Sequence record: ON568341.1
Direction: 5' to 3' (one strand)
Origin: Escherichia phage UE-S1
DNA length: 64,000 bases
The translations under genes were made by a program, and so were the position numbers. The notes beneath the pieces were generated by a model. It did not search any database. It was not told where the DNA came from and was given only the letters and a program-made list of their open reading frames with translations. Below, piece by piece: positions 16,663 through 18,480 of the stretch (position 1 is the first letter of the stretch; each line of letters starts with the position of its first letter).

Positions 16663-16770
16663 AAAACAGTGGGACAGAATACCAATAACTGATATAATTA
16701 TTAGTATCTGAACATCGATTGATGAAAAAGAGATAAGATATGCGTTATAGTTGTGGTATAATATTTTATC

Positions 16771-17172
16771 GTGATGGTCAGATACTTATCGGACATACAA
16801 CACGGACAGAAACATTGGGATTTACCTAAAGGGAAAGCAGAGGGTGAAGAAACATTCAAAGAAGCTGCTGTGCGTGAATGTTTTGAAGAGACAGGATACG
16901 AAATCGATGAAGATGATCTTCTGTTTCTTGGTGATGTATCCTATAGAAAGGGAAAAAGGTTGGTTCTTTTCTTTTATACTGCTAAAGACAAGCCTGTACC
17001 AGATGAATTAGTATGTAAAAGTACATATACTAATAGATATGGTAAGAGTCATCCAGAATTGGATAAGTTCATGTACATTGATGTGCGAGAATGTCAAAAG
17101 TATTTGACTGAACGAATGTGTAACAGTATAATAAAAGCGGTTAAAGCTTTTCAAAGAAATAAAAGGAAATAA
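16771..17172 (+). CDS. NUDIX hydrolase; N-terminal strand appears encoded in another frame from ATG 16740 (frameshift or pseudogene)
   Basis: Nudix box GKAEGEETFKEAAVRECFEETG; upstream frame from 16740 encodes MRYSCGIIFYRDGQILIGHTTR and stops at 16827. Confidence 0.6.
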   Translation: MMVRYLSDIQHGQKHWDLPKGKAEGEETFKEAAVRECFEETGYEIDEDDLLFLGDVSYRKGKRLVLFFYTAKDKPVPDELVCKSTYTNRYGKSHPELDKFMYIDVRECQKYLTERMCNSIIKAVKAFQRNKRK

Positions 17173-17173
17173 T

Positions 17174-17422
17174 ATGAAAGTTAAAATTTATGGTCGCACG
17201 ACTGGTTGTAAATTTTGCGATACTGCAAAAGCTGTATGTGAGCAAAATAAATTTGACATGGAATTTGTAGATATTGTTACTGAAGGTATTGATGGTGCAA
17301 AGCTATCAGAAATTTGTGGTGAGCCAGTACGTCAGGTTCCTCAAATTTTTGTAAATGACATTTATGTACCTGGGGGTTGTACTGGATTTATTGAAGGACT
17401 TAAAGAAGGTCGTTGGAAATAA
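17174..17422 (+). CDS. glutaredoxin/thioredoxin-like protein (T4 NrdC-like)
   Basis: KIYGRTTGCKFCDTAK with C-x-x-C, and PQIFVND..GGCTGFIEGL parallel T4 NrdC (KVYG..C.YCDNAK, PQVF..IGGF). Confidence 0.65.
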   Translation: MKVKIYGRTTGCKFCDTAKAVCEQNKFDMEFVDIVTEGIDGAKLSEICGEPVRQVPQIFVNDIYVPGGCTGFIEGLKEGRWK

Positions 17423-17664
17423 TGGATATTGAAAAAGTATCATCTCGTGCAAAACAACTAGCTGACACGTTGGGAGTAGAGTTCAAAATTCCTGATATCA
17501 CCATCGCTAAAGAAAAAGCACAGAATAAAATTAATAAGATGAAAGAATATCTATCTAAACAGGAGCAATATGATTCTGCTGTAGAATTTATTATGAAATC
17601 ATTTAGTAAAGATGATATTTTGGCATTCATCAAATATGTGAAGGTTTCTGGTAACCCTAAATAA
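17422..17664 (+). CDS. hypothetical protein
   Basis: ATG at 17422 overlaps the upstream stop (TAATG); track start is a TTG at 17413. Confidence 0.45.
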   Translation: MDIEKVSSRAKQLADTLGVEFKIPDITIAKEKAQNKINKMKEYLSKQEQYDSAVEFIMKSFSKDDILAFIKYVKVSGNPK

Positions 17665-17709
17665 CAATGAAGAACAAAAGTTCTTCTTAACAATTTGGGA
17701 GATACTATT

Positions 17710-17949
17710 ATGCTCAGTTTTCGTGAACAATTAGCAAAAGGTCAAATTAAGACTCAAGCTCAAACTAATATTCCTAAAAAATCTGCATTTTTGGGAACAA
17801 TTACGGAAGATGGATATTGTGACTATGATGCACCAGAAGATTCATGGTATATTACAAAAGACACAAAACGTAGTAATAGACTTCACAAAAGTACAATAGC
17901 TAGAAAGCATCGAAAAGAATTGAAAAAAATTCGTTTCGGTGAAGAATAA
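17710..17949 (+). CDS. hypothetical basic protein
   Basis: ATG at 17710 preceded by GGGAGA; track begins at a TTG 15 nt upstream. Confidence 0.45.
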   Translation: MLSFREQLAKGQIKTQAQTNIPKKSAFLGTITEDGYCDYDAPEDSWYITKDTKRSNRLHKSTIARKHRKELKKIRFGEE

Positions 17950-17964
17950 TAAAATATAAATTAA

Positions 17965-17992
17965 GGACTCTGTGTTTGGAGTCCTTTCTTTT
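17965..17992 (+). terminator. intrinsic terminator
   Basis: GGACTC tgtgttt GGAGTCC followed by TTTCTTTT. Confidence 0.55.
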
Positions 17993-18003
17993 CGGAGAAC
18001 ATA

Positions 18004-18480
18004 ATGATACATGAGCACCGAGGTAATCTGTTTGAATTGTTCAGTACTGTAACCGATGATGAAACTGCATTGCATATTATTGCACATGGTTGCAACGCCC
18101 AAGGTAAAATGGGTTCTGGTTTTGCAAAAGAACTAAGAAATCGTTACCCAATGGCATATGATGATTATAAAGCATATGAAAAGGAAATGGGATTTCTAAG
18201 AACTGGAAAAATTGCATATTCTTCGGTAAGTGATGATTTACTTATTGCAAACTGTATTACCCAACAATTCTACGGGAATGATGGTAAAAAATATGTAAGT
18301 TATGATGCAATTGATGATATTTTCAAAGAGATAAATTACTTATGTAATATTGAACGTAGTGTTTATGTACACTTTCCGAAAATTGGAGCCGATTTGGGTG
18401 GTGGTAACTGGAACGTTATCAAAGAAATTATTGATCACAGACTGGTCAATGCAGAAAAACACTTATATATTCTAAAATAA
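18004..18480 (+). CDS. macro domain-like (ADP-ribose binding/processing) protein
   Basis: LHIIAHGCNAQGKMGSGFAKELRNRYP matches the macro-domain spacing h-VNAAN-x-G-x-G-GV-x-A-x-x-x-x-W/YP; 158 aa. Confidence 0.5.
   Translation: MIHEHRGNLFELFSTVTDDETALHIIAHGCNAQGKMGSGFAKELRNRYPMAYDDYKAYEKEMGFLRTGKIAYSSVSDDLLIANCITQQFYGNDGKKYVSYDAIDDIFKEINYLCNIERSVYVHFPKIGADLGGGNWNVIKEIIDHRLVNAEKHLYILK

Follow-up and report, generated by a model that had tools for sequence, protein, structure and literature searches.

Escherichia phage UE-S1 carries, in the 64,000-nucleotide stretch of sequence record ON568341.1 that was analysed here (hereafter the window), a Nudix hydrolase gene, a glutaredoxin gene and a macrodomain gene, which all lie on the + strand within positions 16740–18480. 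Two questions are raised by this locus: how is the Nudix protein made from a gene whose two parts stand in different reading frames, and do the three genes act together, as proposed in the first-pass annotation, which located them correctly and read them as one combination processing ADP-ribose or nicotinamide adenine dinucleotide (NAD) derivatives against host defences? The three genes are ordinary and already annotated, the GenBank entries of relatives carrying the labels NUDIX, glutaredoxin and macro domain; the anti-defence reading is reasonable for the macrodomain gene only, and it is not novel. The part that specialists would not expect is an apparently conserved +1 recoding of the Nudix gene; it weighs more than the grouping of the three genes, and every deposited annotation misses it. 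For the locus as a whole, the balance tips slightly towards an explanation in which the three genes are independent, with an AdfM-like macrodomain protein, a recoded NudE.1-type Nudix enzyme and a glutaredoxin serving ribonucleotide reductase.

Window bases 15500–19500 are matched by 36 phage records, the best of them with ∼91% identity across the whole 4 kb. These best matches are Escherichia phages slurp01, 121Q, PBECO4 and other members of Asteriusvirus (121Q/PBECO4-like phages), which are jumbo myoviruses with genomes of ∼350 kb. Because none of the matching records is identical, the window represents a new close relative of a well-sampled group; the top protein identity of the macrodomain gene among database homologues is 91%. 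The two segments of the Nudix gene, and the site proposed to join them, are located as follows:

16740..16802, + strand: Nudix gene segment 1, 21 codons in frame 0 (MRYSCGIIFYRDGQILIGHTT), preceded by the Shine-Dalgarno-like sequence AAAGAG

16797..16809, + strand: proposed +1 recoding site, ACA ACA C GGA CAG, at which C16803 would be skipped; the 0-frame codon is CGG

16804..17172, + strand: Nudix gene segment 2, frame +1, 122 codons plus stop, carrying the Nudix box

The first-pass annotation placed the Nudix gene at 16771..17172. This open reading frame (ORF) matches Pfam PF00293 with 48.1 bits (cut-off 21.1) and holds a complete Nudix box, GKAEGEETFKEAAVRECFEETGY (consensus GX5EX7REUXEEXGU), which confirms the family assignment; the interval, however, is not the whole gene, which would start at ATG 16740, where the first-pass annotation itself begins the cluster, and be read with a +1 shift at 16803. 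Read from ATG 16740, frame 0 contains 29 codons, MRYSCGIIFYRDGQILIGHTT RTETLGFT*, and ends at the stop codon at 16827–16829; the Nudix box is in the +1 frame relative to this ATG. The joined product, join(16740..16802, 16804..17172), is 143 amino acids long, its Nudix box runs from G31 to Y53, and its score against PF00293 rises to 51.9 bits.

Outside the Asteriusvirus type, the gene is intact. GAP32, RaK2 and Munch each have one uninterrupted Nudix ORF, which starts MRY(T/S)CGIIFYRDGQILIGHTTGQ.HWDLPKGK, and uninterrupted homologues are also present in Hallingskeid and fENko-Kae01. In the alignment, the extra base is found in the window, 121Q, slurp01, ph0011, Ecwhy_1, JNE01 and A4; the Asteriusvirus type reads ACA ACA C GGA CAG where the others read ACN ACN GGN CAR. 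With a 111-nucleotide query taken around the site, all 35 Asteriusvirus-type records matched at the exact query length, whereas every relative from another genus matched over one base less. One 121Q-like metagenome contig likewise has the extra base. Since the base occurs in all 35 records and in this contig, the split is not a sequencing error, and a strain-specific mutation is ruled out in the same way. Transcriptional slippage was also rejected; there is no homopolymer run at the site.

A split that is shared by a whole genus could still mean that the Asteriusvirus Nudix gene is not recoded, the insertion having killed the ancestral start and left either a truncated protein of 132 amino acids, translated from the internal ATG 16774, or a decaying pseudogene. 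The deposited annotations agree with such a truncation: in GenBank, the Nudix coding sequence of every annotated relative is 131–136 amino acids long and begins at an internal start. The region upstream of that start, however, behaves as coding sequence. Segment 1 has kept 20 of the 21 residues found at the N-terminus of the intact GAP32 homologue. Among six diverged lineages, eight sites vary in nucleotides 1–63 of the gene; seven are at third positions of frame 0 (binomial p ∼0.003, calculated by hand) and the eighth is a conservative Ile/Val change. Read in the frame of the annotated start, these substitutions alter the amino acids (MVRYLSDIQH, MGRYLSGIQH, MVRYLLVIQH etc.). From nucleotide 65 on, the variable sites follow frame +1: third codon positions account for 74 of them, first positions for 26 and second positions for 13. 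Purifying selection changes frame exactly at the junction; because the downstream part is clearly under such selection, the gene is not a pseudogene.

Truncation is opposed by three further observations. The Shine-Dalgarno sequence that precedes ATG 16740 is absent before the internal ATG 16774. The truncated product would lack the first β-strands of the Nudix fold: joining segment 1 moves the start of the Pfam NUDIX match from profile position 26 to position 7, and the residues of segment 1 align with the first strands of solved Nudix enzymes. Finally, the insertion persists in 35 records that diverge by up to 17%. With these findings on the other side, we regard a non-recoded gene as doubtful, and a Nudix gene that is recoded by a +1 shift as fairly likely.

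The split gene is most economically read as the product of a programmed +1 frameshift that a 'hungry codon' would trigger. In the 42 long ORFs of the window (those of 150 amino acids or more), CGG is used once in 16,251 codons, which makes it the rarest sense codon by far; in the same ORFs, CGT occurs 297 times and AGG 22 times. A ribosome that meets this nearly unused codon would skip C16803 and read GGA, and the full-length enzyme of 143 amino acids would result. Among the tRNAs encoded by 121Q are a tRNA-Gly(UCC), which reads the +1 codon GGA, and a tRNA-Thr(UGU), which reads ACA; no tRNA-Arg is encoded in 121Q. Extended to the whole genus, the proposal is that Asteriusvirus phages make their NudE.1-like Nudix enzyme solely through a programmed +1 frameshift at ACA-CGG-A, with the hungry CGG as the trigger, a statement that, judged from comparative sequence evidence, we find slightly more credible than its opposite.

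Several points weigh against such recoding. The P-site Thr tRNA (anticodon UGU) cannot re-pair in the +1 frame, where ACA becomes CAC; a Ty3-like mechanism without slippage would therefore be required. No classical slippery site is present at the junction, and neither a stimulatory Shine-Dalgarno sequence nor an RNA structure supported by covariation was found at the shift site, all of which agrees with a gene that is simply truncated. fEgEco12 has no tRNA-Gly gene. The 13-mer at the shift site is invariant in six Asteriusvirus lineages, but with n = 6 this invariance is statistically unremarkable. Two candidate stimulators or decoders were considered and rejected. A predicted RNA fold pairs the shift site with 16868–16876 (z-score −2.5), and 0 of its 20 predicted pairs show a compensatory change; Rfam gave no match anywhere in the window. 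As for a quadruplet-decoding tRNA, both tRNA-Thr(UGU) genes of fEgEco12 have ordinary 7-nucleotide anticodon loops, and the window contains no tRNA genes.

Known +1 sites offer a measure for the proposed one. As at the sites of E. coli prfB (CUU-UGA-C) and of the yeast elements Ty1 (CUU-AGG-C) and Ty3 (GCG-AGU-U), two overlapping frames are present; here, the joint product is colinear with homologues that are encoded by a single ORF. The Ty elements have a hungry AGG or AGU codon in the A-site, and the phage gene likewise has the very rare CGG. In Ty3, as at the phage site, the P-site tRNA is unable to re-pair in the new frame. Different from the known sites, there is no stop codon at the phage site, the 0-frame stop being 24 nucleotides downstream and lost in phage A4, and no Shine-Dalgarno-like or structural stimulator accompanies it.

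When the shift-site pattern was scanned against IMG/VR and the metagenome collection, only 121Q itself and one 121Q-like contig were returned. A protein-seeded scan of IMG/VR gave 13 loci, 12 of which belong to other genera and have the gene intact. A literature search for Asteriusvirus and frameshifting returned nothing relevant, and we know of no +1 frameshift in any Nudix gene or in Asteriusvirus. The joined product predicts a tryptic peptide that spans the junction, DGQILIGHTTGQK (ending ...GQN or ...GQQ in relatives). If confirmed, the site would be a rare natural +1 recoding site in a phage, and the annotation of more than 30 genomes would have to be corrected. If true, it would also be a new natural case of slippage-free, Ty3-type +1 recoding, here in a bacterial virus. 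How much full-length Nudix protein is made would then hinge on the balance between the supply of host tRNA-Arg(CCG) and that of tRNAs able to read the +1 codon (in 121Q, for example, the phage-encoded tRNA-Gly(UCC)), and the level of an enzyme that hydrolyses NAD and ADP-ribose would be tied to the translational state of the infected cell, including an attack on tRNAs by host defences.

What would the recoded enzyme do? Segment 2 matches PHROG 1185 (E 3.4e-46), and over 130 amino acids the joined protein shares 38% identity with T4 NudE.1 (E 2e-20). NudE.1 acts on ADP-ribose, NAD, diadenosine triphosphate (Ap3A) and flavin adenine dinucleotide (FAD), and it decaps NAD-RNA in vitro. The only effect described for its catalytic mutant is that lysis comes ∼15 min later; bulk NAD and NAD-cap levels are unchanged, and no defence phenotype of NudE.1 is known. 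By analogy, we infer that the phage protein is a NudE.1-type pyrophosphatase with activity on ADP-ribose, NAD, NAD-capped RNA, Ap3A and FAD; a role against defence is possible but unsupported. The T4 gene, e.1, resembles that of the window phage in having a lysozyme gene upstream. Different from T4, the genes for a CCA-adding enzyme and HPF stand between lysozyme and Nudix in the window phage, and the Nudix gene would require a +1 frameshift after codon 21.

Other Nudix genes of these phages were noted as well. The intact Nudix protein of fENko-Kae01 (L010 301–732), together with its CCA enzyme, is flagged 'identified with LC-MS/MS' (liquid chromatography with tandem mass spectrometry); as the authors of the fENko-Kae01 paper caution, the preparation was ultrafiltered only and virion association is not established. 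In the window, a second, MutT-like Nudix gene (56282–56746, − strand, 154 amino acids, Pfam 55.5 bits) adjoins a gp15-like tail-completion gene in the structural module, and its product may be a virion-associated enzyme. In 121Q, a Sir2-like gene overlaps a third Nudix gene by 4 nucleotides (121Q 220175–221475; L041 20175–21475); these two genes are coupled more closely than the Nudix and macrodomain genes of the window, and an RNA ligase and a polynucleotide kinase are encoded ∼16–18 kb upstream of it.

Are the Nudix and macrodomain genes parts of one module? Two features of the + strand bear on this question:

17963..17992, + strand: intrinsic-terminator-like hairpin with a 10-bp stem and a T-rich tail, 12 nucleotides upstream of the macrodomain gene start

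18004..18480, + strand: macrodomain protein, 158 amino acids, Tk.4/AdfM family, SCO6735/Bt_1257-like branch of the ALC1-like class

In 121Q, A4, GAP32, RaK2 and Munch, which represent four genera, the same place is likewise occupied by a hairpin with a T-run behind it; the stems differ and the pairing is kept. This pattern is typical of a functional terminator or processing site, here separating the Nudix-glutaredoxin unit from the macrodomain unit. Because there is no room for a promoter between the hairpin and the gene, expression of the macrodomain protein would require either transcription that reads through the hairpin or a promoter located before it.

The wider comparison also separates the two genes. 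In T4, the homologues tk.4 and nudE.1 are 5.6 kb and 13 genes apart, and in no case, across T4, five other annotated phage groups and four metagenomic phage contigs, does a Nudix gene adjoin a macrodomain homologue. Three unrelated phage contigs (L043 3186–6500; L046 5001–9055; L048 3860–8108) carry macrodomain homologues of 41–48% identity. In one contig the neighbouring genes encode a cpYpsA SLOG protein, a protein with an HD domain and Gad2, which counters Gabija; in another they encode an S-adenosylmethionine (SAM) synthetase and a SAM lyase, and in the third the homologue is flanked by the genes of an ERF recombinase and a DnaB helicase.

Adjacency alone is weak evidence for a link between macrodomain and Nudix genes: 121Q has three Nudix genes and one macrodomain gene among ∼611 genes, and by a hand estimate the latter would fall within four genes of some Nudix gene by chance in ∼4% of cases. 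The gene order CCA enzyme, Nudix, glutaredoxin, small ORFs, macrodomain, two ORFs, gp13-like neck protein is shared and kept in 121Q, A4, GAP32, RaK2 and Munch (RaK2-like phages of four to five genera). Since RaK2-like genomes are broadly colinear, the kept order says little about coupling. It could, on the other side, reflect a functional link that these analyses do not see. With the hairpin and the separate homologues in view, the proposed working combination finds little to recommend it, and the three genes are probably not a dedicated module. They would rather be independent accessory enzymes that were co-inherited in the RaK2/121Q-like jumbo-phage lineage, with T4 nudE.1, a Grx/NrdC-type redoxin and T4 tk.4 as their respective counterparts.

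The macrodomain protein itself agrees with its earlier designation as macro-like. In sequence comparison with phmmer against the PDB, it matched Bt_1257 (1.3e-16), SCO6735 (2.5e-11), yeast Poa1p (4e-7) and DarG (1.5e-3). A profile built from 36 homologues gave 7e-27 for Bt_1257, 1e-18 for SCO6735, 1e-14 for Poa1p, 3e-11 for DarG and 3e-9 for TARG1. The AlphaFold model, made with the 36-homologue alignment, has a three-layer α/β/α macro fold with a mean predicted local distance difference test score (pLDDT) of 94 and a predicted template modelling score (pTM) of 0.90. In the Foldseek search against the PDB, Bt_1257, SCO6735, Poa1p, DarG and TARG1 rank at the top with TM-scores of up to 0.82, and the top 50 matches are all macrodomains except two designed serine hydrolases, 4JGK and 4ETJ. 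Structural modelling thus gives a confident macro fold, and the ADP-ribose-binding loops are conserved in the alignments.

Among phage proteins, the relationship is with T4 Tk.4 (29% identity, pairwise E 4e-12), a similarity that was likewise noted by the annotators of RaK2 and GAP32. The ORF matches PHROG 335, which is labelled 'phosphatase', with 4e-43. DarG is the sole NCBIfam match and the sole PADLOC match of the protein, and the PADLOC DarG model scores it at 38.6 bits, compared with 36 bits for T4 Tk.4. With tblastn, the family was found in 2,179 of 50,697 phage records; T4-like, Felix-O1-like, Pakpunavirus, phi92-like and Barba phages are among them.

The residues that define the family are well conserved. 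In a distant set of 11 sequences that includes T4 Tk.4, H28, N31, G37, G39, Q87 and P125 are invariant, and G128 and G133 are nearly so. In the closer set of 36 sequences, H28, G29, N31, G39, A41, Q87, P125, G128, G133 and G134 are invariant, whereas G37 is not. The conserved ADP-ribose-binding loops are G37-S-G39-F-A41 and P125-x-I-G128-x-x-L-G133-G134; the motif quoted in the first-pass annotation covers residues 28–49. Q87 aligns with Gln85 of SCO6735 (ANMIGQ) and N31 with its Asn27 (HVCN); in TARG1 and DarG, the position of Q87 is occupied by the catalytic lysine (Lys84 and Lys80, respectively). The mobile loop after Gln87, QQFYGNDGKKYVSY, contains K95 and K96; it is 1–2 residues shorter than that of SCO6735 and Bt_1257 and ∼6 residues longer than that of T4 Tk.4.

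SCO6735 of Streptomyces coelicolor and Bt_1257 are thus the best matches in both sequence and structure, and they share with the phage protein the Gln in place of the catalytic Lys, the Asn27 equivalent and a long mobile loop with two lysines. Different from it, they are bacterial chromosomal proteins, just 24–29% identical to the phage protein. T4 Tk.4 and PhiKZ gp104 (AdfM) are, as here, stand-alone phage macrodomains of ∼155 amino acids. Tk.4 has the HGCN, TQ and P-IG-G-GNW motifs in common with the phage protein and matches the DarG model at the same level; it differs in its shorter loop and in its location in the tk-vs cluster, whereas the window gene is near the neck gene. The DarG2 macrodomain and TARG1 have the same ALC1-like fold (Foldseek probability 1.0), but the phage protein, with Gln87, lacks their catalytic Lys, the Asp of TARG1 and the C-terminal DarT-binding domain of DarG, and its gene has no toxin gene as a partner. 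Taken together, the protein is an additional member of the AdfM/Tk.4 family, of a Gln-type, SCO6735-like variety.

In a 2025 preprint, tk.4 was the single T4 gene needed on DarTG2 hosts and was named adfM; its knockout sensitised T4 to DarTG2. T4 tk.4 has no phenotype on plain K-12. A 2026 paper reported that the PhiKZ macrodomain AdfM (gp104) strips DarT2 marks from DNA. SCO6735 removes DarT-made ADP-ribose from DNA thymidine faster than DarG and rescues DarT toxicity, and its Asn27 and Gln85 are essential (PMC9411070).

The phage protein is very probably a 1''-ADP-ribose hydrolase. It would release ADP-ribose from 1''-linked adducts through an Asn31/Gln87 site of the SCO6735 type, which stands in place of the catalytic lysine of DarG and TARG1. 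Its most likely job, that of T4 AdfM, would be to clear ADP-ribose placed by the host toxin DarT2 from the thymidines of single-stranded phage DNA, so that replication proceeds on DarTG2 hosts. We put the chance that DarT2-modified DNA is the physiological target at even or slightly better. The macro fold and the conserved residues are direct results, whereas the substrate and the defence phenotype are drawn from the homologues. Because the gene is a homologue of T4 Tk.4/AdfM, the anti-defence reading is plausible for it, and the SCO6735 branch and the DarG-model score point the same way; that reading did not carry over to the other two proteins, the glutaredoxin being GrxA-like in a lineage with NrdAB and the T4 homologue of the Nudix enzyme having no known defence phenotype. 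If it holds, RaK2/121Q-like jumbo phages, several of which are in therapy development, probably carry a Gln-type AdfM of the SCO6735 branch, and DarTG2 resistance is therefore predicted for them; this Gln-type AdfM would provide a second, mechanistically distinct active-site variant for study.

Some results weigh against an AdfM assignment. The search with the Macro and NUDIX profiles suggested in the first-pass annotation succeeded for NUDIX, but the score on Pfam Macro (PF01661) was 19.6 bits, just under the 22-bit cut-off; T4 Tk.4 scores 27.7 bits on this profile, and a PF01661 match is precomputed for many homologues of 40–70% identity. The DNA-positioning Lys34 of SCO6735, which is important for its DNA activity, corresponds to Ser38 in the phage protein; a Lys or Arg is conserved three positions before Ser38, at K35. 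A NARP1-linked Pakpunavirus homologue, which is 29% identical and encoded two genes after Adps and Namat, has a better tblastn match to the 121Q macrodomain orthologue (5e-15) than T4 Tk.4 has (2e-9). This homologue is probably an ADP-ribose-1''-phosphate phosphatase, Adpp. Gln87 was considered as a residue that might discriminate AdfM from Adpp, and it failed, as the Pakpunavirus homologue also has Gln. Because Gln87 is common to both homologues, sequence is unable to separate the two activities, which both cut a 1''-linked group off ADP-ribose; a phosphatase activity of the macrodomain protein on ADP-ribose-1''-phosphate is possible.

The protein could accordingly act on soluble ADP-ribose derivatives, as an Adpp/Poa1p-type phosphatase or a cyclic ADP-ribose hydrolase, with the Nudix enzyme splitting the released ADP-ribose into AMP and ribose-5-phosphate and the two together draining toxins or signals of the aRES or Thoeris type. 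Such a two-step drain is the model of the first-pass annotation and also that of Iyer and Aravind: in 2021–22, Iyer, Aravind and colleagues proposed that Macro and Nudix proteins of jumbo phages oppose NAD/ADP-ribose immunity, and found that the two co-occur in genomes, those of DNA viruses, above chance (PMC7824862, PMC9503650). A 2026 preprint described Poa1p-like macro proteins in NARP1 operons (Adpp) that dephosphorylate ADP-ribose-1''-phosphate made by the aRES defence. The Pakpunavirus homologue stands in just such a NARP1-AP arrangement, phage Adpp proteins have this activity, and Poa1p is a strong match of the window protein, in the single-sequence and profile searches as well as in Foldseek (E 3.5e-10). 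The 'phosphatase' label of PHROG 335 and the hydrolysis of ADP-ribose by T4 NudE.1 fit as well.

Adpp and Poa1p share the macro fold with the phage protein, but Poa1p has a Ser where the family has the invariant Gln87, and Adpp is a NARP1 operon gene, whereas the window gene lies outside such an operon and its neighbours are not NARP1 genes. Adpp works by feeding NARP1; with Pakpunavirus queries, no tblastn match to Adps or Namat at E ≤ 1 was found in the whole 121Q genome, which contains one macrodomain gene only. The drain is further opposed by the conserved hairpin between the macrodomain and Nudix genes and by the ten other contexts in which a macrodomain homologue has no adjacent Nudix gene. 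The Nudix enzyme could dispose of ADP-ribose released by the macrodomain protein, yet nothing ties the two. Since 121Q has a single macrodomain gene and no Adps or Namat match, the AdfM role is favoured over a soluble substrate, which we consider unlikely.

A third possibility is housekeeping of NAD and RNA rather than counter-defence. The Nudix enzyme would decap NAD-RNA, and the macrodomain protein would clear O-acetyl-ADP-ribose, ADP-ribosyl marks made by the phage's own Sir2-like enzyme, or ADP-ribose-1''-phosphate (Appr-1''-p) from RNA repair. NudE.1 indeed decaps NAD-RNA in vitro, but its inactivation leaves the bulk NAD-cap levels as they were. The neighbourhood has a translational flavour, with an HPF/RaiA-like protein and the CCA-adding enzyme encoded upstream and a YqeY-like gene in the GAP32 cluster, and 121Q has the Sir2 gene overlapping its third Nudix gene as well as RNA ligase and polynucleotide kinase; the 121Q annotation lists no KptA/Tpt1 gene. 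A scan of the 121Q annotation for ADP-ribosyltransferases and NADAR proteins was uninformative, most genes being 'hypothetical', and returned only Sir2, two further Nudix genes, RNA ligase and polynucleotide kinase, and ribonucleotide reductase genes. Two genes after the macrodomain gene, a 125-amino-acid ORF (18824–19201) is annotated as aminoacyl-tRNA hydrolase in ph0011, which would suit housekeeping; its match to the peptidyl-tRNA hydrolase family PTH2 is faint (E 0.12), no PDB sequence matched it, and this assignment was rejected. Housekeeping is also opposed by the T4 orthologue, whose clear phenotype is conditional on DarTG2 hosts and does not appear on plain K-12. It is a more remote prospect than a soluble substrate, and an AdfM-like role on DarT2-modified DNA is the assignment that we keep for the macrodomain protein.

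The third gene of the trio and the small ORFs around it are:

17174..17422, + strand: GrxA-like glutaredoxin, 82 amino acids, CKFC active site, its ATG one spacer base after the Nudix stop codon

17422..17664, + strand: 80-amino-acid ORF, no function assigned, PHROG 34640 (E 5.9e-53), corresponding to 121Q gp542, its ATG overlapping the glutaredoxin stop codon

17710..17949, + strand: 79-amino-acid ORF, no function assigned, PHROG 15319 (E 2.2e-48), corresponding to 121Q gp543

The glutaredoxin, which had been described as NrdC-like, is a glutaredoxin by its Pfam PF00462 score (35.4 bits, cut-off 22.9) and its CKFC active site, but it resembles GrxA more than NrdC. Its best NCBIfam match is the GrxA family with 66.6 bits, under the 84-bit equivalog cut-off, and it shares 38% of its residues with Grx1 of E. 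coli, compared with 29% for T4 NrdC. All three are CxxC redoxins of ∼82 amino acids; the phage active site is CKFC, not CPYC or CVYC. Grx1 and NrdC are reductants of class Ia ribonucleotide reductase, and 121Q encodes NrdA and NrdB. By analogy, the glutaredoxin most likely reduces the phage class Ia ribonucleotide reductase for nucleotide synthesis; nothing links it to ADP-ribose. Because of the one-base spacing and the start/stop overlap, the Nudix gene, the glutaredoxin gene and the 80-amino-acid ORF form one tight unit, in which the glutaredoxin would be translationally coupled to the Nudix gene. The 80-amino-acid ORF gave no significant Pfam or NCBIfam match. Small ORFs without an assigned function flank the macrodomain gene on both sides; the third gene upstream of it encodes the glutaredoxin, and the third gene downstream the neck protein.

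Upstream of the Nudix gene, one further element was recorded:

16671..16698, + strand: sigma-70-like promoter candidate, GGGACA, a 16-nucleotide spacer and TG-TATAAT, with 10 of 12 consensus matches and the TG extension

Judged by this consensus, the element may act as a promoter. It consists of an extended −10 region, TGATATAAT, followed by GTATCTGA; in the alignment, the −10 box and the GTATCTGA motif are also present in GAP32, Munch, Hallingskeid and fENko-Kae01.

Some observations were made elsewhere in the window. At 38737–39330, a 197-amino-acid protein with an SGGAAGAD motif has a weak match, below the cut-off, to a YAcAr/cpYpsA-related SLOG domain (E 6e-4), and it is called 'DprA-like' in 121Q; domains of the SLOG type are predicted to sense or process NAD/ADP-ribose derivatives. 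The adjacent thymidylate synthase ORF (39330–40883) is 517 amino acids long, compared with 309 amino acids in 121Q. Its ∼208 extra residues form an in-frame insert that falls between ThyA profile positions ∼107 and ∼108 (roughly nucleotides 39684–40412); no Pfam domain was found in the insert, nor a group I intron by Rfam. Directly after the gp13-like neck gene, a homing-endonuclease-like gene of 664 amino acids (20285–22279; PHROG 3339; DUF7487 repeats) is present. 121Q has no gene of that size at this place, and RaK2 has a homing endonuclease at the same position.

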